Shown piece after piece: positions 6,511 to 39,467 of a stretch of 64,000 nt of DNA. The notes beneath the pieces were generated by a model. It saw only the letters and a list, made by a program, of their open reading frames with translations, was not told the origin of the DNA and ran no database searches. A program made the position numbers and the translations under genes. Source of the stretch: Escherichia coli (GTDB taxonomy: Bacteria > Pseudomonadota > Gammaproteobacteria > Enterobacterales > Enterobacteriaceae); the NCBI RefSeq assembly GCF_050920415.1, contig NZ_CP169309.1; one strand, written 5' to 3'. The first letter of the stretch is position 1, and each line of letters begins with the position of its first letter.

Positions 6511-7713
6511 ATGCAAAGTGTTGATGTAGCCATTGTTGGCGGCGGCATGGTGGGGCTGGCGGTTGCCTGCGGCTTGCAGGGCAGCGGCTTACGCGTTGCC
6601 GTACTGGAGCAGCGCGTACCGGAACCCCTGGCGGCGGATGCACCACCACAACTGCGCGTTTCGGCTATCAATGCCGCCAGCGAAAAATTACTCACCCGTC
6701 TTGGCGTCTGGCAGGAGATTCTCTCCCGCAGAGCCAGTTGCTATCACGGCATGGATGTGTGGGACAAAGACAGTTTTGGTCACATTTCGTTTGACGATCA
6801 AAGCATGGGCTATAGCCATCTTGGGCATATCGTTGAAAATTCAGTCATTCACTACGCGCTGTGGAACAAAGCACAGCAGTCCTCAGATATCAGCCTGTTA
6901 GCCCCTGCAGAATTACAGCAGGTCGCCTGGGGAGAGAACGAAACCTTCCTGACGCTGAAAGACGGCAGCATGTTAACGGCGCGTCTGGTGATTGGCGCAG
7001 ACGGCGCTAATTCCTGGTTGCGCAACAAAGCCGATATTCCGCTGACTTTCTGGGATTATCAGCATCACGCGCTGGTGGCGACCATTCGCACGGAAGAACC
7101 GCATGATGCGGTGGCGCGACAGGTTTTCCATGGCGAAGGCATTCTGGCCTTTTTGCCGCTTAGCGATCCGCATCTTTGCTCAATTGTCTGGTCACTGTCG
7201 CCAGAGGAAGCACAGCGGATGCAGCAGGCAGGCGAAGACGAATTTAACCGCGAGTTAAATATCGCTTTTGATAATCGCCTGGGCTTATGCAGGGTTGAGA
7301 GTGAACGTCTGGTGTTCCCGCTGACTGGGCGTTATGCGCGCCAGTTTGCCGCGCACCGTCTGGCGCTGGTGGGCGACGCCGCGCATACCATTCACCCGTT
7401 GGCGGGGCAGGGGGTGAATCTCGGCTTTATGGATGCTGCAGAGCTGATTGCTGAACTGAAACGGTTGCATCGTCAGGGTAAAGACATCGGGCAGTACATT
7501 TACCTGCGTCGCTATGAGCGTAGCCGCAAGCACAGTGCGGCGCTGATGCTGGCAGGTATGCAGGGATTCCGCGATCTGTTTTCCGGGGCTCATCCGGCGA
7601 AAAAACTGCTGCGTGATATTGGCCTGAAACTGGCCGACACGCTTCCTGGCGTTAAACCACAACTTATCCGTCAGGCAATGGGATTAAACGATTTGCCTGA
7701 ATGGCTGCGCTAA
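6511..7713 (+). CDS. ubiI: 2-octaprenylphenol hydroxylase (FAD-dependent), UbiI/VisC
   Basis: 400 aa; paralogous to ubiH with GGGMVGLAVA FAD motif; follows ubiH as in E. coli. Confidence 0.95.
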   Translation: MQSVDVAIVGGGMVGLAVACGLQGSGLRVAVLEQRVPEPLAADAPPQLRVSAINAASEKLLTRLGVWQEILSRRASCYHGMDVWDKDSFGHISFDDQSMGYSHLGHIVENSVIHYALWNKAQQSSDISLLAPAELQQVAWGENETFLTLKDGSMLTARLVIGADGANSWLRNKADIPLTFWDYQHHALVATIRTEEPHDAVARQVFHGEGILAFLPLSDPHLCSIVWSLSPEEAQRMQQAGEDEFNRELNIAFDNRLGLCRVESERLVFPLTGRYARQFAAHRLALVGDAAHTIHPLAGQGVNLGFMDAAELIAELKRLHRQGKDIGQYIYLRRYERSRKHSAALMLAGMQGFRDLFSGAHPAKKLLRDIGLKLADTLPGVKPQLIRQAMGLNDLPEWLR

Positions 7714-7756
7714 AAATTTCTCTTCTGCTGTTTATTTGATACCCATCACACTTTCA

Positions 7757-7786
7757 TCTCCCGGTTTTTTCGCCGGGAGATTTTCC
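7757..7786 (+). terminator. Rho-independent terminator after ubiI
   Basis: Hairpin tctcccgg-ttttttcg-ccgggaga followed by ttttcc. Confidence 0.6.
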
Positions 7787-7799
7787 TCATTTGAAATAA

Positions 7800-8160
7800 A
7801 CTAATTTCACCTCCGTTTTCGCATTATATTTTCTAATGTCACGAATTTTTGATTTGGTGTTTTTTGACATTTTTTCAGTTCTTAATGTTGCCTTATTCAA
7901 ATTAACTTTCTCATCTAATTATCTTTGTATAGAGATTGGTTCTTTTTTTGGTTTTTTATTCTGTTGCGATTTTGGCGTTTTTTAACCATAAGCTAATGTG
8001 ATGATCAATTTTACCTTATGGTTAACAGGCTGTTTCGGTGGTAAGTTCAGGGAAAAGAGAACGATTGCGTTGGGGACCGGGAGTGGCTCCGATGCTGGGT
8101 TTCGTGGTGATAATTTCACCATGAAAAAGTTGTCAGCCCCGCTTATTCAATGAGGACAAG
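7800..8160 (+). promoter_or_regulatory. gcvTHP upstream control region (extended AT-rich regulatory DNA)
   Basis: About 360 bp of AT-rich non-coding DNA directly upstream of gcvT; from established knowledge the gcv promoter is controlled by GcvA, Lrp, PurR and CRP binding far upstream; individual sites not mapped here. Confidence 0.5.
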
Positions 8161-9255
8161 ATGGCACAACAGACTCCTTTGTACGAACAACACACGCTTT
8201 GCGGCGCTCGCATGGTGGATTTCCACGGCTGGATGATGCCGCTGCATTACGGTTCGCAAATCGACGAACATCATGCGGTACGTACCGATGCCGGAATGTT
8301 TGATGTGTCACATATGACCATCGTCGATCTTCGCGGTAGTCGCACCCGGGAGTTTCTGCGTTATCTGCTGGCGAACGATGTGGCGAAGCTCACCAAAAGC
8401 GGCAAAGCCCTCTACTCGGGGATGTTGAATGCCTCTGGCGGTGTGATAGATGACCTCATCGTCTACTACTTTACTGAAGATTTCTTCCGCCTCGTTGTTA
8501 ACTCCGCCACCCGCGAAAAAGACCTCTCCTGGATTACCCAACACGCTGAACCTTTCGGCATTGAAATTACCGTTCGTGATGACCTCTCCATGATTGCCGT
8601 ACAAGGGCCGAATGCGCAGGCAAAAGCTGCCACACTGTTTAATGATGCTCAGCGTCAGGCGGTGGAAGGGATGAAACCCTTCTTTGGCGTGCAGGCGGGC
8701 GATCTGTTTATTGCCACCACCGGTTATACCGGTGAAGGGGGCTACGAAATTGCGCTGCCCAATGAAAAAGCGGCGGATTTCTGGCGAGCGCTGGTGGAAG
8801 CGGGCGTTAAGCCCTGCGGTCTGGGCGCGCGTGACACGCTGCGTCTGGAAGCGGGTATGAATCTTTATGGTCAGGAGATGGACGAAACCATTTCTCCTTT
8901 AGCAGCCAACATGGGCTGGACCATCGCCTGGGAACCGACTGATCGTGACTTTATCGGTCGTGAAGCTCTGGAAGCGCAGCGTGAACATGGCACAGAAAAA
9001 CTGGTTGGTCTGGTGATGACCGAAAAAGGCGTGCTGCGTAATGAACTGCCGGTACGTTTTACCGATGCGCAGGGCAATCAGCATGAAGGCATTATCACCA
9101 GCGGTACTTTCTCCCCGACGTTGGGTTACAGCATTGCGCTGGCACGCGTGCCGGAAGGTATTGGCGAAACGGCGATTGTGCAAATTCGCAACCGTGAAAT
9201 GCCGGTAAAAGTGACGAAACCTGTTTTTGTGCGTAACGGCAAAGCCGTCGCGTGA
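8161..9255 (+). CDS. gcvT: glycine cleavage system T protein (aminomethyltransferase)
   Basis: 364 aa ORF recognised as GcvT. Confidence 0.97.
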
Positions 9256-9278
9256 TTTACTTTTTTGGAGATTAATTG

Positions 9279-9668
9279 ATGAGCAACGTACCAGCAGAAC
9301 TGAAATACAGCAAAGAACACGAATGGCTGCGTAAAGAAGCCGACGGCACTTACACTGTTGGCATCACTGAGCACGCTCAGGAGCTGTTAGGCGATATGGT
9401 GTTTGTTGACCTGCCGGAAGTGGGCGCTACGGTAAGCGCGGGCGATGACTGCGCGGTTGCCGAATCGGTAAAAGCGGCGTCAGACATTTATGCGCCAGTA
9501 AGCGGTGAAATCGTGGCGGTAAACGACGCACTGAGCGATTCTCCGGAACTGGTGAACAGCGAACCGTATGCAGGCGGCTGGATCTTTAAAATAAAAGCCA
9601 GCGATGAAAGCGAACTGGAATCACTGCTGGATGCGACCGCATACGAAGCATTGTTAGAAGACGAGTAA
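9279..9668 (+). CDS. gcvH: glycine cleavage system H protein (lipoyl carrier)
   Basis: Track ORF starts at TTG 9276; ATG at 9279 gives the 129 aa protein [17 protein letters not shown]...; lipoyl-lysine motif region ESVKAASD. Confidence 0.97.
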
Positions 9669-9786
9669 CGGCTTTATTCCTCTTCTGCGGAAGAGGATTA
9701 GGGTGAGGAACATTTACGCCTCACCCTCACTCTCTTCGCAAGGAGAGAGGTTCACAATTCACTGCACGTTTCAGGAACCATCGCTC

Positions 9787-12660
9787 ATGACACAGACGTT
9801 AAGCCAGCTTGAAAACAGCGGCGCTTTTATTGAACGCCATATCGGACCGGACGCCGCGCAACAGCAAGAAATGCTGAATGCCGTTGGCGCACAATCGTTA
9901 AACGCGCTGACCGGCCAGATTGTGCCGAAAGATATTCAGCTTGCGACCCCGCCGCAGGTTGGCGCACCGGCGACCGAATACGCCGCGCTGGCGGAACTCA
10001 AGGCTATTGCCAGTCGCAATAAACGCTTCACGTCTTACATCGGCATGGGTTACACCGCCGTGCAGCTACCGCCGGTTATCCTGCGTAACATGCTGGAAAA
10101 TCCGGGCTGGTATACCGCGTATACTCCGTATCAACCTGAAGTCTCCCAGGGCCGCCTTGAAGCACTGCTTAACTTCCAGCAGGTAACGCTGGATTTGACC
10201 GGGCTGGATATGGCCTCTGCTTCTTTGTTGGATGAAGCCACCGCTGCCGCCGAAGCAATGGCGATGGCAAAACGCGTCAGTAAACTGAAAAATGCCAACC
10301 GCTTCTTCGTTGCTTCTGACGTGCATCCGCAAACCTTAGATGTAGTACGTACACGCGCAGAAACCTTTGGTTTTGAAGTGATTGTCGACGATGCGCAAAA
10401 AGTTCTCGATCACCAGGACGTCTTCGGCGTGCTGTTACAGCAGGTTGGCACTACCGGTGAAATTCACGACTACACTGCGCTTATCAGCGAACTGAAATCA
10501 CGCAAAATTGTAGTCAGCGTCGCCGCCGATATTATGGCGCTGGTGCTGTTAACTGCACCGGGTAAACAGGGCGCGGATATTGTCTTTGGTTCGGCGCAAC
10601 GCTTTGGCGTACCGATGGGCTACGGTGGCCCACATGCGGCATTCTTTGCGGCGAAAGATGAATACAAACGCTCAATGCCGGGCCGTATTATTGGTGTATC
10701 GAAAGATGCAGCTGGCAATACCGCGCTGCGCATGGCGATGCAGACTCGCGAGCAACATATTCGCCGTGAGAAAGCGAACTCCAACATTTGTACTTCGCAG
10801 GTACTGCTGGCAAACATCGCCAGCCTGTATGCCGTTTATCACGGCCCGGTTGGCCTGAAACGTATCGCTAATCGCATTCACCGTCTGACCGATATCCTGG
10901 CAGCGGGCCTGCAACAAAAAGGTCTGAAGCTGCGCCATGCGCACTATTTCGATACTTTGTGTGTGGAAGTGGCCGACAAAGCGGGCGTGCTGGCGCGTGC
11001 CGAAGCGGCTGAAATCAACCTGCGTAGCGATATTCTGAATGCGGTTGGGATCACCCTTGATGAAACCACCACGCGCGAAAACGTGATGCAGCTTTTCAGC
11101 GTACTGCTGGGCGATAATCACGGACTGGACATCGACACGCTGGACAAAGACGTGGCTCACGACAGCCGTTCTATTCAGCCTGCAATGCTGCGCGATGACG
11201 AAATTCTCACCCATCCGGTGTTTAATCGCTACCACAGCGAAACCGAAATGATGCGCTATATGCACTCGCTGGAGCGTAAAGATCTGGCGCTGAATCAGGC
11301 GATGATCCCGCTGGGTTCCTGCACCATGAAACTGAACGCCGCCGCCGAGATGATCCCAATCACCTGGCCGGAATTTGCCGAACTGCACCCGTTCTGCCCG
11401 CCGGAACAGGCCGAAGGTTATCAGCAGATGATCGCCCAACTGGCTGACTGGCTGGTGAAACTGACCGGTTACGACGCCGTCTGTATGCAGCCGAACTCTG
11501 GCGCTCAGGGCGAATACGCGGGGCTGCTGGCGATTCGTCATTATCATGAAAGCCGCAACGAAGGGCATCGCGATATCTGCCTGATCCCGGCTTCTGCGCA
11601 CGGCACTAACCCGGCTTCCGCGCATATGGCAGGAATGCAGGTGGTGGTTGTGGCGTGTGATAAAAACGGCAACATCGATCTGACTGACCTGCGCGCGAAA
11701 GCGGAGCAGGCGGGCGATAATCTCTCCTGCATTATGGTGACCTATCCTTCCACCCACGGCGTGTACGAAGAAACGATCCGTGAAGTGTGTGAAATCGTGC
11801 ATCAGTTCGGCGGTCAGGTTTACCTTGATGGCGCGAACATGAACGCCCAGGTTGGTATCACTTCGCCGGGTTTTATTGGTGCGGACGTTTCGCACCTTAA
11901 CCTGCATAAAACTTTCTGCATTCCGCACGGCGGTGGTGGTCCGGGTATGGGACCGATCGGCGTGAAAGCGCATTTGGCACCGTTTGTTCCGGGTCATAGT
12001 GTGGTGCAAATCGAAGGCATGTTAACCCGTCAGGGCGCGGTTTCTGCGGCACCGTTCGGTAGCGCTTCTATTCTGCCAATTAGCTGGATGTACATCCGCA
12101 TGATGGGCGCAGAAGGGCTGAAAAAAGCAAGCCAGGTGGCAATCCTCAACGCCAACTATATTGCCAGCCGCCTGCAGGATGCCTTCCCGGTGCTGTATAC
12201 CGGTCGCGACGGCCGCGTGGCGCACGAATGTATTCTCGATATTCGCCCGCTGAAAGAAGAAACCGGCATCAGCGAGCTGGATATTGCCAAGCGCCTGATC
12301 GACTATGGTTTCCACGCGCCGACTATGTCGTTCCCGGTGGCGGGGACGCTGATGGTTGAACCGACTGAATCTGAAAGCAAAGTGGAACTGGATCGTTTTA
12401 TCGATGCGATGCTGTCTATCCGCGCAGAAATCGACCAGGTGAAAGCCGGTGTTTGGCCGCTGGAAGATAACCCGCTGGTGAACGCGCCGCACATTCAGAG
12501 CGAACTGGTCGCCGAGTGGGCGCATCCGTACAGCCGTGAAGTTGCAGTATTCCCGGCAGGCGTGGCAGACAAATACTGGCCGACAGTGAAACGTCTGGAT
12601 GATGTTTACGGGGACCGTAACCTGTTCTGCTCCTGCGTACCGATTAGCGAATACCAGTAA
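9787..12660 (+). CDS. gcvP: glycine dehydrogenase (decarboxylating), P protein
   Basis: Track ORF 9703..12660 trimmed to ATG 9787 ([21 protein letters not shown]...) giving 957 aa. Confidence 0.97.
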
Positions 12661-12682
12661 TTTACTGATTCGACTATCTTCT

Positions 12683-12710
12683 AAAGGCGCTTCGGCGCCT
12701 TTATTTTTTT
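12683..12710 (+). terminator. Rho-independent terminator after gcvP
   Basis: Hairpin aaaggcgc-ttcg-gcgccttt followed by T-run; ygfF start follows 11 nt later. Confidence 0.7.
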
Positions 12711-12720
12711 AGGAAAACAA

Positions 12721-13464
12721 ATGACTATAGCACTTGTGACCGGTGGCAGTCGCGGCATCGGGCGGGCAACTGCATTACTGTTGGCGCAAGAAGGGTATAC
12801 GGTGGCGGTTAATTATCAGCAAAACCTCCACGCGGCGCAGGAAGTGGTGAAGTTAATCACGCAAGCCGGTGGCAAGGCATTCGTGCTTCAGGCGGATATC
12901 AGCGACGAAAATCAGGTCATCGCAATGTTTACAGCAATCGATCAGCACGATGAACCGCTAGCCGCGCTGGTCAATAACGCCGGGATCTTGTTTACCCAGT
13001 GCACCGTAGAAAACCTTACCGCAGAGCGAATCAACCGGGTACTTTCCACCAATGTGACGGGATATTTTCTCTGTTGCCGCGAGGCGGTAAAACGCATGGC
13101 GCTTAAAAATGGCGGTAATGGCGGTGCTATCGTCAACGTCTCTTCAGTGGCCTCACGGCTGGGATCTCCGGGGGAATACGTTGATTATGCGGCCTCGAAA
13201 GGGGCGATTGATACGTTAACCACAGGGCTGTCGCTGGAAGTCGCCGCGCAGGGGATCCGCGTTAACGGCGTGCGGCCAGGGTTTATTTATACCGAAATGC
13301 ACGCCAGCGGTGGCGAACCTGGACGCGTTGATCGCGTTAAGTCGAACATCCCCATGCAGCGTGGCGGACAGGCGGAAGAGGTCGCGCAGGCCATCGTCTG
13401 GCTGTTAAGTGATAAAGCCTCTTATGTCACGGGAAGTTTTATCGATTTGGCGGGTGGAAAATAA
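12721..13464 (+). CDS. ygfF: short-chain dehydrogenase/reductase family oxidoreductase
   Basis: 247 aa; SDR cofactor motif TGGSRGIG and catalytic YxxxK (YAASK). Confidence 0.9.
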   Translation: MTIALVTGGSRGIGRATALLLAQEGYTVAVNYQQNLHAAQEVVKLITQAGGKAFVLQADISDENQVIAMFTAIDQHDEPLAALVNNAGILFTQCTVENLTAERINRVLSTNVTGYFLCCREAVKRMALKNGGNGGAIVNVSSVASRLGSPGEYVDYAASKGAIDTLTTGLSLEVAAQGIRVNGVRPGFIYTEMHASGGEPGRVDRVKSNIPMQRGGQAEEVAQAIVWLLSDKASYVTGSFIDLAGGK

Positions 13465-34441: not shown

Positions 34442-37312
34442 TTATATTTTTTCCAGCGCGGTGAGTATTTTCTCCGGTGTGAAATGCCATTCGCGTAACC
34501 AGATGCCGCAGGCATCGTGAATTGCGGTAGCAATCGCCGGAGCTGCGCCATTTACACCGATTTCTGAGATTGATTTCGCCCCGAATGGGCCGACTTTATC
34601 GTCGCTCGGCACCAGCACAGCGCGGAAATCACGCGGAATGTCACCAATTTTCGGTGCGCCGTAACTGCGTAAATCACGCGTTAACGGGTGGCCTTCGGCG
34701 TCATAAATGATTTCTTCGCTCATACTGTGCCCGATAGCACGCAGGGTGGCACCGTAGATTTGTCCCAACGCTAACTCTGGATTGACCGGTGTACCGCAGT
34801 CCAGCAAGGCATAGAATTTATCCAGGCGGATTTCACCCGTACGTGTGTTGACGGCAACTTCAGCAAAGTTTGCGCCATACGGGAAGGCGAAATCAGGCGT
34901 GATATAACTGGCAGTTCCCACCAGTGAACCAAAACCGGTGCCGGTTTCGCCTTTATGGGCAATATCACCGAAACTAACTTCGCCTTTCTTGCCGCGAACG
35001 ACACCCGGCGTTGCCAGTTGAACATCCTCCAGGGGTTCCCCCAGCATTTGTGCGCCGTGGAACAGGATTTTCTCTCGGAGGTTTTCTGCCGCCATACGCG
35101 CCGCGTTGCCGGAGAAACATGTACCGGACGAGGCATATGCGCCTTTATCAAACAGCGCATGATCGGTATCACCGGAGATAACATGCACGTCCTGCGGTGG
35201 GCAGTGCAGCACTTCTGCTGCCAGTTTCGTCACAACCGTATCCAGACCAGTACCAATATCCGCACCGCCAGAATGAACGATAAAGGTACCGTCTGATTCC
35301 AGTTTGATCATGCAGTTAGCCTGATCGATATCCGGGATCCCTGATTTCTGCATGATAATGGCGACGCCACGACCGATGTGCCAGTCACCGTTTTGTGGTT
35401 TTGGTGAAGACCATTGGATCATCTCGCGACCCTGACGCAGGATCTCTTCCAGTGCGCAGCTGGCGGCGGAAGGAACGGAGGTCGGCGCTTTACCTTCACC
35501 GATTGCACCGAGAATTTTCAGCTCTTGCCCTTCGTGTACCCGGTTACGTTCGATAATTTCCAGTTGGTCGATCTGTAACTGTTCAGCCAGTTCCGCTAAT
35601 GCCATGGTGATAGCGAAGTTACCTTTCGGTGCGCCATAACCCTGATAAGCACCATTTGGGCAAATGTTGCTGTAGTAGGTGGTGACCTGGAAATCGACGT
35701 TATCGCACGGATATAACGGCAGCGACAGCGCCGGTCCGTTACACGGTACGGTGAGTGAGTGGTTGCCGTAAGGGCCTGTGTTGGCGCGGAAATCCATCTT
35801 CACAGCCGTCAGGCGACCATCTTTCTTTGCCCCCAGTTTGACGGTGACTTTCGCGACGTGACGAGAGGTGTTAGCAATAAACTCTTCTTCACGAGTGTAG
35901 CGGAACAGTACCGGACGCCCGGTCACGCAGGTTGCCCAGGCGCACACTTCTTCCAGCAGGATGTCCTGTTTAGACCCAAAACCGCCGCCAACTCGCTCTT
36001 TAATGACATGAACTTTATGTTGTTTCATGCCCACGAGGCGCGCGACCTGGCGGCGTAAGTGCCATGGTACCTGGGTGGAGGCGTGGATAACCAGACGATC
36101 GCCGTCCATACGGGTAAAGCAGATATGAGTTTCAGTCGGGCACTGCTGCGCCTGCGTTGAGTTATAGGTTCGCTCAATGATCACATCGGCATCGGCAAAG
36201 CCTTTGTCCATATCGCCAATATGACCATGAATACTGGCGGCGATATTTTTACGGGGGCGAGAACCGATCGGGAAGTTGATGATCATATGCTCGCCGCGCT
36301 GGGCTGCATGGCTGTTATCGTCTTCCAGAGTATCTGGCGCACCAGCAACATACACCACCGGTTCATCGTGCACGACAGGCGCATCTTCCGCCATTGCCTC
36401 GTCAATCGACATTACAGGTTTAAGCACTTCATATTCAACGTCGATGAGCTTCAGTGCTTCGAGCGCAATTTCTTCACTTTCTGCGACGACCGCAGCAACG
36501 CGATCGCCGACGTGACGCATTTTCTTGCCGAACATACGGCGGTCAAGCGGTGACGGTTCCGGTGCGCTCTGACCACCCGGGGTGTAGTAGATATCCGGGC
36601 AATTCAGATGAGTAATAACGTGAACGACGCCTGGTAAGGCTTCAGCTTTGCTGACATCCAGGTGAGTAATCAGTGCGTGAGCGTGAGGGCTACGTAACAT
36701 TTTAATGACGCAGGCGTCAGCCGTTACGCGGTCTTCAACATAGCAGGGTTTCGCCTGCACCATTTTTGCGGCATCAGTTTTAGGATAATGCTTACCAATG
36801 ACTTCAAGGTCATCGCGGAAAGTCGGAGCGATATCAATGGTGGCCTGCGGGTTATTTTTACGTGCAACCGCCAGTTCAATGACCTGATAGTATTGTTGCC
36901 AGCCTGCATCGCGACTGAACAAACCAGAAAGCGCGTCGTCGATCTCTTCGCGGGTCGGTGCGGCGATACGCTCGAGCAGATCAGTGATAATCAGAGCAGC
37001 AGCTGGATCGTTATAACCAGACTGCACCACGCCAACATCAACCATTGCCTGTTGAACCAGACTTAACTCGTTCCATTTTCCCAGAGACTCTGCGGTACGA
37101 ATATTAGCCTTCTCTATCTGTGCGGCAATAAGTAAGGACGCGTTGACGATATTACCGTTAAAGATAATTGCGTCAGAACCGGCAAAACCGAATCCATCAT
37201 CGCTGTTGCGTACAGAGTGCATTCCCATGTTAAACAACAGCTTTTGCACGTTTTCACCAGGATTAACGGTTAGCTCCTGGGGCGTGCCATTTAATGTAAA
37301 GTGGATGATCAT
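34442..37312 (-). CDS. xdhD: molybdopterin-binding oxidoreductase subunit with N-terminal 2Fe-2S domain (xanthine dehydrogenase-like)
   Basis: 956 aa ORF recognised as XdhD (YgfN). Confidence 0.92.
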   Translation of the reverse strand: MIIHFTLNGTPQELTVNPGENVQKLLFNMGMHSVRNSDDGFGFAGSDAIIFNGNIVNASLLIAAQIEKANIRTAESLGKWNELSLVQQAMVDVGVVQSGYNDPAAALIITDLLERIAAPTREEIDDALSGLFSRDAGWQQYYQVIELAVARKNNPQATIDIAPTFRDDLEVIGKHYPKTDAAKMVQAKPCYVEDRVTADACVIKMLRSPHAHALITHLDVSKAEALPGVVHVITHLNCPDIYYTPGGQSAPEPSPLDRRMFGKKMRHVGDRVAAVVAESEEIALEALKLIDVEYEVLKPVMSIDEAMAEDAPVVHDEPVVYVAGAPDTLEDDNSHAAQRGEHMIINFPIGSRPRKNIAASIHGHIGDMDKGFADADVIIERTYNSTQAQQCPTETHICFTRMDGDRLVIHASTQVPWHLRRQVARLVGMKQHKVHVIKERVGGGFGSKQDILLEEVCAWATCVTGRPVLFRYTREEEFIANTSRHVAKVTVKLGAKKDGRLTAVKMDFRANTGPYGNHSLTVPCNGPALSLPLYPCDNVDFQVTTYYSNICPNGAYQGYGAPKGNFAITMALAELAEQLQIDQLEIIERNRVHEGQELKILGAIGEGKAPTSVPSAASCALEEILRQGREMIQWSSPKPQNGDWHIGRGVAIIMQKSGIPDIDQANCMIKLESDGTFIVHSGGADIGTGLDTVVTKLAAEVLHCPPQDVHVISGDTDHALFDKGAYASSGTCFSGNAARMAAENLREKILFHGAQMLGEPLEDVQLATPGVVRGKKGEVSFGDIAHKGETGTGFGSLVGTASYITPDFAFPYGANFAEVAVNTRTGEIRLDKFYALLDCGTPVNPELALGQIYGATLRAIGHSMSEEIIYDAEGHPLTRDLRSYGAPKIGDIPRDFRAVLVPSDDKVGPFGAKSISEIGVNGAAPAIATAIHDACGIWLREWHFTPEKILTALEKI

Positions 37313-38088
37313 ACGGCTTCCTCCCCAGCCTGTTGGCAGTCGGCATAAAGGTCGGCTACCAGAACTCCCGTGATATAGCGTTTATAGGCCACGCTGCCCC
37401 GCAAATCTTCCTGCGGGAAAATGGCGTTGGCGACAGCCTGTTCAAGGGCATCGCCTTCCAGGTTTTGTTTTTCAACATCGTGCAGACGCAGTGCTTTACT
37501 GGCCACGCCATCCAACGCAATTCGCATACCGTCGTGATCGGTTAACGCAACGGCTGCCGTTACTACCGTTAACCCAGCCTGAGAACGGCTAATTTTGCGA
37601 GTCGTACAGGTGCGATACGGATCTTTAATGATGATTTCGGTTAGCAGGCGATCGCATGGGCAGGCCAGGTACTCCTCAATTGACAGAGTTTCACCGTTGC
37701 CAAAAACCAGTTCGGCATCCAGTGCCAGCAGGACGGGAAGCAGCACCGACTCTTCCTGCCGGGCGGCGATTTCACCACCAATGGTCGACTGATTACGAAT
37801 ATGGCGAGAGTAGACAAAGCCGAGGGCCTCACGCAGTGCTGCAGGAATAAACCGTGCATCACGCAGTGTTTGCAAGCGAGACATTGCGCCAATCCGCAAT
37901 GCACCGTTATCCCAGTCAACCCAGTCCAGTTCCAGATCCTGTAAGGATATGGCAATCTTTTTATCGGTACGGGTTGGTGTGGCGTTGAGTTTACTGCCTC
38001 CGGCGAACCAGACGGCTTCATCCTGGTAGCGGCGCTTCAGTTCCAGCGCCTGTTCGACAGAGTCGGGCCTGAAAAATTGTTCAATCAT
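37309..38088 (-). CDS. ygfM: FAD-binding subunit of molybdenum hydroxylase (CO dehydrogenase flavoprotein-like)
   Basis: 259 aa; overlaps xdhD start by 4 nt. Confidence 0.9.
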   Translation of the reverse strand: MIEQFFRPDSVEQALELKRRYQDEAVWFAGGSKLNATPTRTDKKIAISLQDLELDWVDWDNGALRIGAMSRLQTLRDARFIPAALREALGFVYSRHIRNQSTIGGEIAARQEESVLLPVLLALDAELVFGNGETLSIEEYLACPCDRLLTEIIIKDPYRTCTTRKISRSQAGLTVVTAAVALTDHDGMRIALDGVASKALRLHDVEKQNLEGDALEQAVANAIFPQEDLRGSVAYKRYITGVLVADLYADCQQAGEEAV

Positions 38089-38138
38089 CTTCTTTCCTTA
38101 TTTAACCCTCTTCCCTGCGGGAAGAGGGTATTTGTCAT

Positions 38139-39467
38139 TTATGCCAGCGCATCCATCCGACGCCACATACTGGCAGCGGCTTTTTGGGCTTGCGCATAAA
38201 TGGAATCGCAATCGAAGTTAAACTGACGGTCTTCATAGACCATCATGCCATTGACCATCACGCTATGAACGCTGCCTGAGCCCATACCGAAAGCGATATG
38301 CCCGGCGATATTGTCTGCCAGCAGCGGCGTCGGCGAGTTGTAATCGCAAATGGTTAAATCGGCTTTGTAACCGGCTTCCAGAAGGCCAAATTTCGCGCCA
38401 AAATTGCGGCTCATCAGTTCGTTGCCGTTAGCCAGTGCTTTGGCAAAACTGTCAGGCCACAGCGGACCACCCGCATCGCGATGTTTAAAGAAGGCAAATT
38501 TCATCTCTTCAAACATATCTGAACCAATACCGTCCGTACCCAACGCCAGATTGCGGATGTCGCAAAGATGATGGTTGTAGCCGACATGGTTGTTCATGTT
38601 TGAACGGGCGTTATGCACCAGGAATGCATCACGCTGATTGAGCAACGCGATGTCGTCTTTAGACAGATAAAGCCCATGAGCGACCAGCGTTTTGCTGTCG
38701 ATGAGATCGAATTGCGCTAATCGTGCCAGCAGATCTTTGCCGTACCAGTGATGACTATGGGAAACATCGTAAAGGTCTTCCGCAGCGTGAATATGTAAAC
38801 CACGGCCTGTGGCTTTCACGGCCTCACGCAGCATTTCCAGACCGGCATCCGGCACAGTAAACGGCGCGTGAGCACCAATATGAGCTTCTACCAGATACGG
38901 TTCAGTTGCCGCTTTCTTCGCATCATCAATCTGACGGGCGAAGCGGATATTTTCCTCTACTCCTTCCTGTAGTTCTTTAATGCCGTTGTTACGGTCAGTG
39001 GTTTCAAAACAGGTCATCGCACGCAGGCCAACTTTTAAAAATGCGTTGCGCAATGTGGAGAGCGACCCGCTGATATACGCCGGAGAGGCATGGTGATCGA
39101 TAACAGATGTACAGCCGCTCTTAATCGCTTCCAGTGAACAAATCAGTCCGCTGTAATAGAGCGACTCTTCATCAAGGGCGCGATCGAGCCGCCACCAGAG
39201 ATTTTTCAGCGTTGAAATGAAATCCGGGCAGGGGGCGATGTTTGCCATAATTCCGCGGGACAGCCCCGAGTAAAAATGGTTGTGCGAGCAGACAATTCCC
39301 GGCATCACAATCCGACCATGCATCTCTTTGTAGTTGGCATCGGGGTAGCGTTGCGTCAGAGCATCGCCTATAGCGACAATCACATCATTTTCGATGGCGA
39401 TATCAACGCCTTCCTGCACTTTCGCCGGGTGTAACTGCACTGCAGTGACATTCTTCAGAATCAACAT
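38139..39467 (-). CDS. ssnA: amidohydrolase-family putative aminohydrolase SsnA
   Basis: 442 aa; metal-binding HxH near N-terminus (CSHNHFYSG). Confidence 0.9.
   Translation of the reverse strand: MLILKNVTAVQLHPAKVQEGVDIAIENDVIVAIGDALTQRYPDANYKEMHGRIVMPGIVCSHNHFYSGLSRGIMANIAPCPDFISTLKNLWWRLDRALDEESLYYSGLICSLEAIKSGCTSVIDHHASPAYISGSLSTLRNAFLKVGLRAMTCFETTDRNNGIKELQEGVEENIRFARQIDDAKKAATEPYLVEAHIGAHAPFTVPDAGLEMLREAVKATGRGLHIHAAEDLYDVSHSHHWYGKDLLARLAQFDLIDSKTLVAHGLYLSKDDIALLNQRDAFLVHNARSNMNNHVGYNHHLCDIRNLALGTDGIGSDMFEEMKFAFFKHRDAGGPLWPDSFAKALANGNELMSRNFGAKFGLLEAGYKADLTICDYNSPTPLLADNIAGHIAFGMGSGSVHSVMVNGMMVYEDRQFNFDCDSIYAQAQKAAASMWRRMDALA

Follow-up and report, generated by a model that had tools for sequence, protein, structure and literature searches.

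Why does the spacer between gcvH and gcvP, inside the glycine-cleavage operon gcvTHP of Escherichia coli, carry three consecutive hairpins? The sequence-only reading of the stretch of DNA analysed here (64,000 nucleotides of contig NZ_CP169309.1, hereafter the window) had described these hairpins and taken them as a hint of processing or attenuation, or of a difference in stability between gcvTH and gcvP. Where function is concerned our answer is plain: the spacer hairpins are an ordinary operon-polarity element, and their function was already catalogued in supplementary tables published in 2018. The apparent evolutionary origin of this element, from the BoxC family of repeats, is modestly interesting. 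The layout of the operon is as follows.

8161-9255, + strand: gcvT coding sequence, 364 aa, first gene of gcvTHP; from the open-reading-frame list, at a position that agrees with the K-12 annotation.
9279-9668, + strand: gcvH coding sequence, 129 aa (ATG 9279, TAA 9666-9668), the stabilised upstream segment; open-reading-frame list and K-12 annotation.
9669-9786, + strand: gcvH-gcvP intercistronic spacer, 118 nt, between the gcvH stop codon and the gcvP ATG.
9750-9786, + strand: gcvP leader with the Shine-Dalgarno sequence AGGA at 9773-9776; no variants in the E. coli strains compared.
9787-12660, + strand: gcvP coding sequence, 957 aa, the less stable downstream segment; open-reading-frame list.
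12682-12711, + strand: operon-terminal intrinsic terminator, 9-bp stem and T-tract; from a terminator scan, the primary Term-seq 3′ end of K-12 gcvP belonging to the same hairpin.

The spacer was located by blastn (at least 90% identity) in 5425 of the 5426 complete E. coli genomes searched. It is 100% identical to that of strain 2013C-4282 and 95-97.5% identical to those of most of the 5425 genomes, and since it is found at a median of one place per genome, the whole spacer is not itself a dispersed repeat at the sensitivity of blastn. Promoter and terminator scans of 7700-13000 returned no promoter-like site in that interval and no terminator-like site in the spacer, and the Rfam 15 scan of the same interval gave the spacer no match to a curated RNA family even at E up to 10, by which a riboswitch or known cis-RNA was ruled out. 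For comparison beyond the species, gcvH-gcvP spacers were taken from 79 of 80 loci in a scan with one genome per species, and were assigned to classes by reading the sequences and by a stricter terminator test. The ATG at 9787, with AGGA 11 nt 5′ of it, is the real gcvP start in all 79 loci with gcvP downstream; the start at GTG 9703 in the mechanical open-reading-frame list, which would fall inside the second hairpin, is an artefact of the open frame. As a separate observation, the gcvP leader ends in ≈30 nt (ATTCACTGCACGTTTCAGGAACCATCGCTC) that hardly vary in most Enterobacteriaceae spacers inspected, while all sequence upstream of them turns over. Such conservation exceeds the needs of the Shine-Dalgarno sequence alone, and a weak hairpin at 9758-9777 overlaps AGGA.

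The three hairpins themselves are readily confirmed. The inverted repeats cctcttc/gaagagg (9679-9685/9690-9696), gggtgagg/cctcaccc (9701-9708/9719-9726) and ctctcttc/ggagagag (9730-9737/9742-9749) lie where the sequence-only reading had placed them, and RNAfold of 9669-9786 yields exactly three adjacent, side-by-side stem-loops with a minimum free energy of -44.7 kcal/mol.

9678-9697, + strand: HP1, UCCUCUUC-UGCG-GAAGAGGA, 8 bp, -13.1 kcal/mol (RNAfold), starting 10 nt past the gcvH stop.
9700-9727, + strand: HP2, AGGGUGAGG-(10-nt loop)-CCUCACCCU, 9 bp, -15.6 kcal/mol (RNAfold).
9730-9749, + strand: HP3, CUCUCUUC-GCAA-GGAGAGAG, 8 bp including one G.U, -12.2 kcal/mol (RNAfold).

Two details of the earlier description need adjustment. 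The place of HP2 was right, but its stem had been slightly understated, at 6 bp rather than 8-9 bp; the third repeat, put at about 9728-9750 and called weaker, is present and is weaker only slightly (-12.2 vs. -13.1 kcal/mol for HP1). The energy of the spacer compares with -28.2 +/- 3.5 kcal/mol for dinucleotide shuffles (z = -4.72; 0/200 as good), and pair probabilities are 0.85-1.0 except at the closing pairs (HP1 0.84, HP2 0.74, HP3 0.48). As a whole the element forms a single large, imperfect palindrome and can therefore adopt a nested alternative fold; at -36.9 kcal/mol this fold is 4 kcal/mol worse than the three-hairpin core (-40.9 kcal/mol). No U-tract follows HP1, HP2 or HP3, whose tails are AUUAGGGU, CACUCUCU and GUUCACAA, and therefore none of them is a classical terminator.

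Sequence comparison identifies HP1, HP2 and HP3 as an inverted pair of BoxC (PIT/TMECO/HPGQ) units that is degenerate and has been shortened internally.

9675-9749, no strand assigned: whole element, eroded BoxC pair; nhmmer profile and canonical pairs in orthologous spacers.
9689-9709, + strand: BoxC/HPG1 core match, GGAAGAGGATTAGGGTGAGGA vs. GGGAGAGGGTTAGGGTGAGGG, 18/21; core from Kaplan 2016.

The BoxC core reads GGGAGAGGG-TTA/CCG-GGGTGAGGG. It is preceded by a complementary C-rich arm and often occurs in inverted pairs, with ≈22-32 copies in E. coli. The 18/21 match is the only one in 64 kb, where 100 shuffles give an expectation of 0. We extracted 18 units from twelve further K-12 BoxC loci and the ygfF-gcvP pair. 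Inverted pairs are found in K-12 at hrpB-mrcB, alx-sstT, ygfF-gcvP and fepB-entC, and their layout, CCCTCTCCC-loop-GGGAGAGGG, GGGTGAGGG-loop-CCCTCACCC, CCCTCTCCC-loop-GGGAGAGGG, is reproduced by HP1, HP2 and HP3: HP1 is the counterpart of the hairpin that a BoxC unit forms from its C-rich arm and GGGAGAGGG, and HP3 that of the third hairpin of the pair. An nhmmer profile built from four independent K-12 BoxC pairs had its best match in 128 kb at 9675-9749 (E = 1.2e-4 and 2.3e-4), spanning all three hairpins. The alignment takes in a loop remnant, AACATTTA, which has no role in pairing and for which canonical pairs have AACATTAA. A half-unit profile was marginal (E = 0.078 and 0.64); the link to BoxC is seen only through the short core motif and the paired profile. 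It is this profile match, together with the canonical pairs at the orthologous site described below, that identifies the E. coli copy as an eroded pair.

The erosion concerns the G-runs, which are lost in the gcv copy while pairing is kept. Where the core calls for four G3 tracts (GGGAGAGGG..GGGTGAGGG), GGAAGAGGATTAGGGTGAGGA of the window has one GGG run, and for that reason the element would fail published BoxC search criteria. It appears neither in Table 1 of Kaplan 2016 nor in the supplement of Holder 2015, which list only the ygfF-gcvP pair. The REP consensus palindrome (GCCGGATG... / ...CCGGCCTAC) is absent from the window spacer.

Two other places in the window touch on the same family. 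The window strain has 60 nt after gcvP (12661-12720), whereas K-12 has a 266-nt spacer there (positions 403-668 of locus L001); the K-12 spacer between the gcvP terminator and ygfF holds an inverted BoxC pair of ≈100 nt (HPG1 and HPG2) that is missing in the window strain. Presence or absence of this ygfF-gcvP pair is the kind of polymorphism described by Holder 2015. A solo BoxC-like hairpin, AACCCTCTTCCC-TGCG-GGAAGAGGGT, is located at 38103-38130, with the arm motif and UGCG loop of HP1. It lies within a 50-nt gap between minus-strand open reading frames at 38139-39467 (442 aa) and 37309-38088 (259 aa), and is the second-best match of both BoxC profiles (E = 0.06-0.7). By size and order, we take these two reading frames to be probably ssnA and ygfM.

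Published 3′-end mapping, the check that the sequence-only reading had proposed, bears on what the hairpins do. The relevant end is the following.

9731, + strand: dominant in vivo RNA 3′ end, from two Term-seq data sets; 4 nt past the last HP2 pair and within the 5′ arm of HP3.

This nucleotide is the U of ...CCUCACCCUCACU, and it corresponds to K-12 3049097(-), since the window and K-12 spacers align without a gap. Adams et al. 2021 (PMC7815308, supplementary file 1) list 3049097 in two entries, with scores of 412,219 and 171,112; the former is ≈11 times higher than the score of the operon-terminal 3′ end at 3046123 (36,065). The same terminal nucleotide was reported independently by Dar & Sorek 2018 (PLoS Genet, PMC5927463), whose table S6 draws HP2 as the protecting structure and gives it -15.7 kcal/mol, and gcvH|gcvP is among their 34 ‘upstream stabilized’ gene pairs (tables S3/S6). 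Their gcvH/gcvP half-life ratio is 2.21 +/- 0.02, or 1.42 with Moffitt data, and their steady-state mRNA ratio is 5.03 +/- 1.33. In Salmonella, differential expression is kept (2.64), with a 3′ end 4 nt past a different, REP-like hairpin (PMC5927463). As a class, the protective hairpins of Dar & Sorek are without U-tracts and show no significant Rho effect; as in the case of malE-malF, these authors read them as structures that stop PNPase and RNase II once an endonuclease has cut the RNA (PMC5927463). A 3′ end a few nucleotides past a stable stem lacking a U-tract is the published signature of exonuclease-trimmed ends.

The same tables hold further Term-seq 3′ ends at window ≈10070 (K-12 3048758), 283 nt into gcvP; at 8226 (K-12 3050602), at the start of gcvT; and at 8105 (3050723), in the gcvT 5′ leader. 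No gcv entry appears in the SMRT-Cappable-seq supplement. Among the possibilities named by the sequence-only reading, differential stability is thus the best supported and is also already known, given the published 3′ end and decay data and hairpins without a U-tract; attenuation by classical termination finds no support in the sequence for want of such a tract.

We consider it probable that the hairpins are the RNA form of an eroded BoxC pair at which exonucleases stall, at HP2, leaving a stable gcvTH RNA and a fixed polarity. The operon is transcribed as gcvTHP, and the long gcvP segment would then be cut endonucleolytically, in gcvP or in the single-stranded, A/U-rich leader at 9750-9772, where RNase E may enter. 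Exonucleases acting in the 3′→5′ direction, presumably PNPase and RNase II, would trim back, pass HP3 as the weakest hairpin and halt at HP2. We infer the endonucleolytic step and the identities of the exonucleases from the malEFG paradigm. The resulting gcvTH RNA ends 4 nt past HP2, and in published data it lives ≈2 times longer and is ≈five-fold more abundant than gcvP. A protective 3′ stem-loop of this stable RNA is the best-supported role for HP2, assigned by position. HP3, which the mature gcvTH species lacks, is probably a leaky first obstacle, and HP1 is probably a back-up barrier, or may uncouple gcvP translation; because it starts 10 nt past the gcvH stop, a terminating ribosome probably melts it. 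The net effect would be a fixed polarity, with one promoter giving more message for the H (and T) protein than for the P protein.

Decay alone does not account for the numbers. A half-life ratio of 2.2 (1.42 with Moffitt data) falls short of a five-fold abundance gap, and therefore something else contributes, most plausibly some termination in the spacer. As a contribution to the gap, a stop of some polymerases at or just past the hairpins, by weak intrinsic or Rho-dependent termination, seems to us possible but rather unlikely; it could operate jointly with differential decay, and the 9731 end would then be a terminated or a trimmed product. Besides the excess of the steady-state ratio (5.0) over the half-life ratio (2.2), relatives of E. 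coli speak for it: at least 16 of the 79 orthologous spacers, in Photorhabdus, Providencia, Dickeya, Pectobacterium, Serratia and Shewanella, have a textbook hairpin and U-tract 4-15 nt past the gcvH stop. A Dickeya transcriptome paper places an internal terminator after gcvH, with an efficiency of ≈71% inferred, and states that E. coli work by SMRT-Cappable-seq and SEnd-seq agrees with this. Past HP2 the tract (CCUCACCCUCACUCUCUUC) has no G, is rich in C and is rut-like, and the 3′ end linked to BoxC downstream of lldD carries a flag for bicyclomycin sensitivity (PMC7815308). In E. coli, however, HP1, HP2 and HP3 all lack a U-tract, and the 9731 end is just 4 nt from the stem, nearer than intrinsic terminators release. 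Dar & Sorek saw no significant Rho effect at their protective sites, a class-level result (PMC5927463), and 3049097 is absent from the two supplementary files of Adams et al. that hold a bicyclomycin comparison (PMC7815308). According to work cited by Holder 2015, reporter assays found BoxC/PIT elements to lack terminator activity.

It is also conceivable, although we find it unlikely, that the spacer serves translational insulation: as a ‘ribosome termination structure’, HP1 would keep ribosomes from re-initiating at gcvP or scanning into it, and gcvP would then rely on weaker de novo initiation, and a lower ribosome cover would expose gcvP to decay. HP1 does begin 10 nt past the stop codon. 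Stable post-stop structures, enriched at intergenic distances of at least 25 nt, lower expression of the distal cistron (Chemla et al. 2020), and differential decay has been tied to differences in ribosome density by Dar & Sorek (PMC5927463). Yet a gap of 118 nt means weak coupling even without a hairpin, and the precise 3′ end past HP2 is left unexplained. Insulation is compatible with stalling of exonucleases at HP2 and is not a substitute for it.

Sequence variation bears on whether the pairing is under selection. We compared six E. coli spacers, that of the window and those of five other strains, a small and non-random sample. Seven sites vary, six of them in loops or linkers, while the seventh changes a U-A pair into U.G; loops and linkers make up 22 of 72 core positions, for which the binomial probability is ≈0.004 (our own arithmetic, on this small non-random sample). 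The exception is an A/G polymorphism at 9691, affecting the pair 9684/9691, with U.G held by K-12 and another lineage; the stems of the six strains are otherwise invariant. Relative to the canonical BoxC arms, 9678/9697 and 9684/9691 have both changed from C-G to U-A, which is compensatory, as are most E. coli substitutions in this comparison. A covariation count over a 10-genus alignment, with low-complexity arms and uncertain register, was no better than shuffled or slid controls, likely because of those arms and of register errors. Taken together, the E. coli polymorphism pattern and the compensatory changes point to a constraint on pairing. Pairing alone is no proof of selection, because a palindromic repeat keeps pairing by origin.

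One E. coli genome of 5426 departs from this picture: strain VTB96775v (NZ_CP178634.1 855475-855691) carries a 52-nt palindromic expansion of the spacer, with five hairpins in the order HP1, HP2, inverted HP3 copy, second HP2, HP3. Either template switching at the palindrome or an error of assembly could have produced the expansion.

Across genera, the junction changes completely. Among the 79 loci, spacer length ranges from 8 to 445 nt and the content turns over entirely, while in 74 spacers, from Enterobacterales and relatives, a hairpin reaches -15 kcal/mol or lower. The spacer is taken up by a canonical BoxC pair, between the same conserved flanks, in Enterobacter cloacae, E. asburiae, Pseudocitrobacter, Buttiauxella, Siccibacter and two further Enterobacteriaceae, and single-hairpin BoxC-type versions occur in Cedecea, Phytobacter and Pluralibacter. 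REP/BIME sequences take this place in Citrobacter, some Enterobacter, Lelliottia and Pseudescherichia, and ERIC-like elements do so in Citrobacter koseri, C. youngae, Kluyvera and Serratia marcescens. The 8-23-nt spacers of some Erwinia and Rosenbergiella hold no hairpin element. This turnover fits a conserved need for gcvP below gcvTH, met by any available hairpin. Alternatively, the site may be merely a permissive landing pad for palindromic repeats, from which the same pattern is expected. We favour the conserved need because distant taxa have terminators and because the effect was measured in two species.

The landing-pad argument can be carried further, to a repeat that is selfish or acts at the DNA level (triplex, G-quadruplex, recombination) and survives as a neutral relic in a permissive spacer, the RNA 3′ end being incidental. 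We judge this improbable. It would suit the membership of the element in a dispersed repeat family, the switching of spacer content among BoxC, REP and ERIC between genera, the 52-nt palindromic expansion to five hairpins in one E. coli strain, the absence from the window strain of the BoxC pair that K-12 has after gcvP, and the raised variability around BoxC elements reported by Holder 2015. But a three-tetrad quadruplex or a canonical triplex requires G-runs that are eroded here, with one GGG per half against GGG in all four tracts, and compensatory changes have nevertheless preserved the hairpin pairing. The E. coli polymorphisms avoid stems, and the element persists in 5425 of 5426 genomes. 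The effect on mRNA stoichiometry is, moreover, large and is conserved in Salmonella with a different hairpin. An RNA that responds to a ligand or an sRNA and tunes gcvP, for instance by changing like a riboswitch between the nested fold and that of three hairpins, is scarcely credible: the two folds lie within 4 kcal/mol and the Neisseria gcvT-gcvH operon is said to be under complex riboregulation, but Rfam returns no match even at E = 10, the sequence derives from a repeat family with the loops as its most variable part, and in sister genera the spacer is swapped for unrelated hairpins.

Exonuclease stalling at HP2, the reading that we prefer, raises the question of whether BoxC elements elsewhere behave alike. 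Published BoxC work treats the family as a DNA structure (triplex/quadruplex) with no assigned function. In the tables of Adams et al. (PMC7815308), 3′ ends are found 3-5 nt past BoxC hairpins at lldD, 3781065(+), and hrpB, 164636(+), and the gcvH 3′ end at 9731 is likewise 3-5 nt past a BoxC-derived hairpin. The lldD end is the one flagged as bicyclomycin-sensitive, and the hrpB end lies past the third hairpin of a canonical pair. At the pstA-pstB, alx-sstT, fabI and tauD BoxC loci the same tables list no 3′ ends, and the adk 3′ end in them is that of its own terminator. This suggests, as a lead and not a survey, that BoxC hairpins define RNA 3′ ends at several loci. We put forward tentatively, aware that it may well not hold, that BoxC acts mainly at the RNA level like REP, as stem-loops without U-tracts that fix mRNA 3′ ends and set polarity inside operons or at their end. 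The loss of G-runs with pairing retained in the gcv copy speaks for this. If this were true, four unrelated hairpin classes (intrinsic terminators, REP, ERIC and BoxC) would have been convergently recruited at gcvH-gcvP, keeping gcvP below gcvTH.

There is little new in the polarity finding itself, which offers a worked example of how one promoter may give unequal amounts of glycine-cleavage subunits. Over the catalogues checked, our additions are modest: the proposed BoxC origin, with erosion of G-runs under retained pairing, and the turnover of hairpin classes at one junction. They nonetheless attach a concrete RNA-level phenotype to a BoxC-derived element, and they illustrate functional conservation with complete sequence turnover, in which a terminator, REP, ERIC or BoxC pair is found according to genus. 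They may be useful for annotating operon-internal polarity signals and for designing tunable synthetic operons.

Finally, the element can be set against known systems. HP1 has the structural features of a ribosome termination structure, being directly post-stop in a spacer of 118 nt (>25 nt); that class was defined statistically and by a synthetic operon (Chemla et al. 2020), and HP1 is likened to it by position and structure. The REP/BIME and ERIC sequences of Citrobacter, Salmonella, Lelliottia, Kluyvera and Serratia are, like BoxC, dispersed palindromic repeats in the same spacer, with sequences unrelated to the E. coli element. The intra-operon intrinsic terminators of Dickeya, Photorhabdus, Serratia and Shewanella share the site past the gcvH stop and the outcome of less gcvP, whereas the E. 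coli hairpins are without a U-tract and their 3′ end is just 4 nt from the stem. With canonical BoxC the gcv element shares the three-hairpin layout, the 18/21 core and the loop remnant (AACATTTA vs. AACATTAA), but its G3/C3 runs are cut to G2 or interrupted and its central loop is ≈20 nt shorter; canonical BoxC has been studied as DNA, whereas the gcv RNA hairpins carry a measured effect. A further likeness is with the malE-malF REP paradigm and with the Dar & Sorek 2018 catalogue of 26 3′ hairpins in a protective role (PMC5927463), in which HP2 is itself included. They have in common a stable hairpin without a U-tract between a stable upstream and an unstable downstream cistron, a steady-state 3′ end a few nucleotides past the stem and a longer-lived upstream segment. 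In 17 of the 26 cases the hairpin lies inside the downstream ORF, whereas that of gcvH-gcvP is intergenic, and, unlike the REP type of malE-malF, HP2 is flanked by two more hairpins and appears to be derived from BoxC and not from REP.
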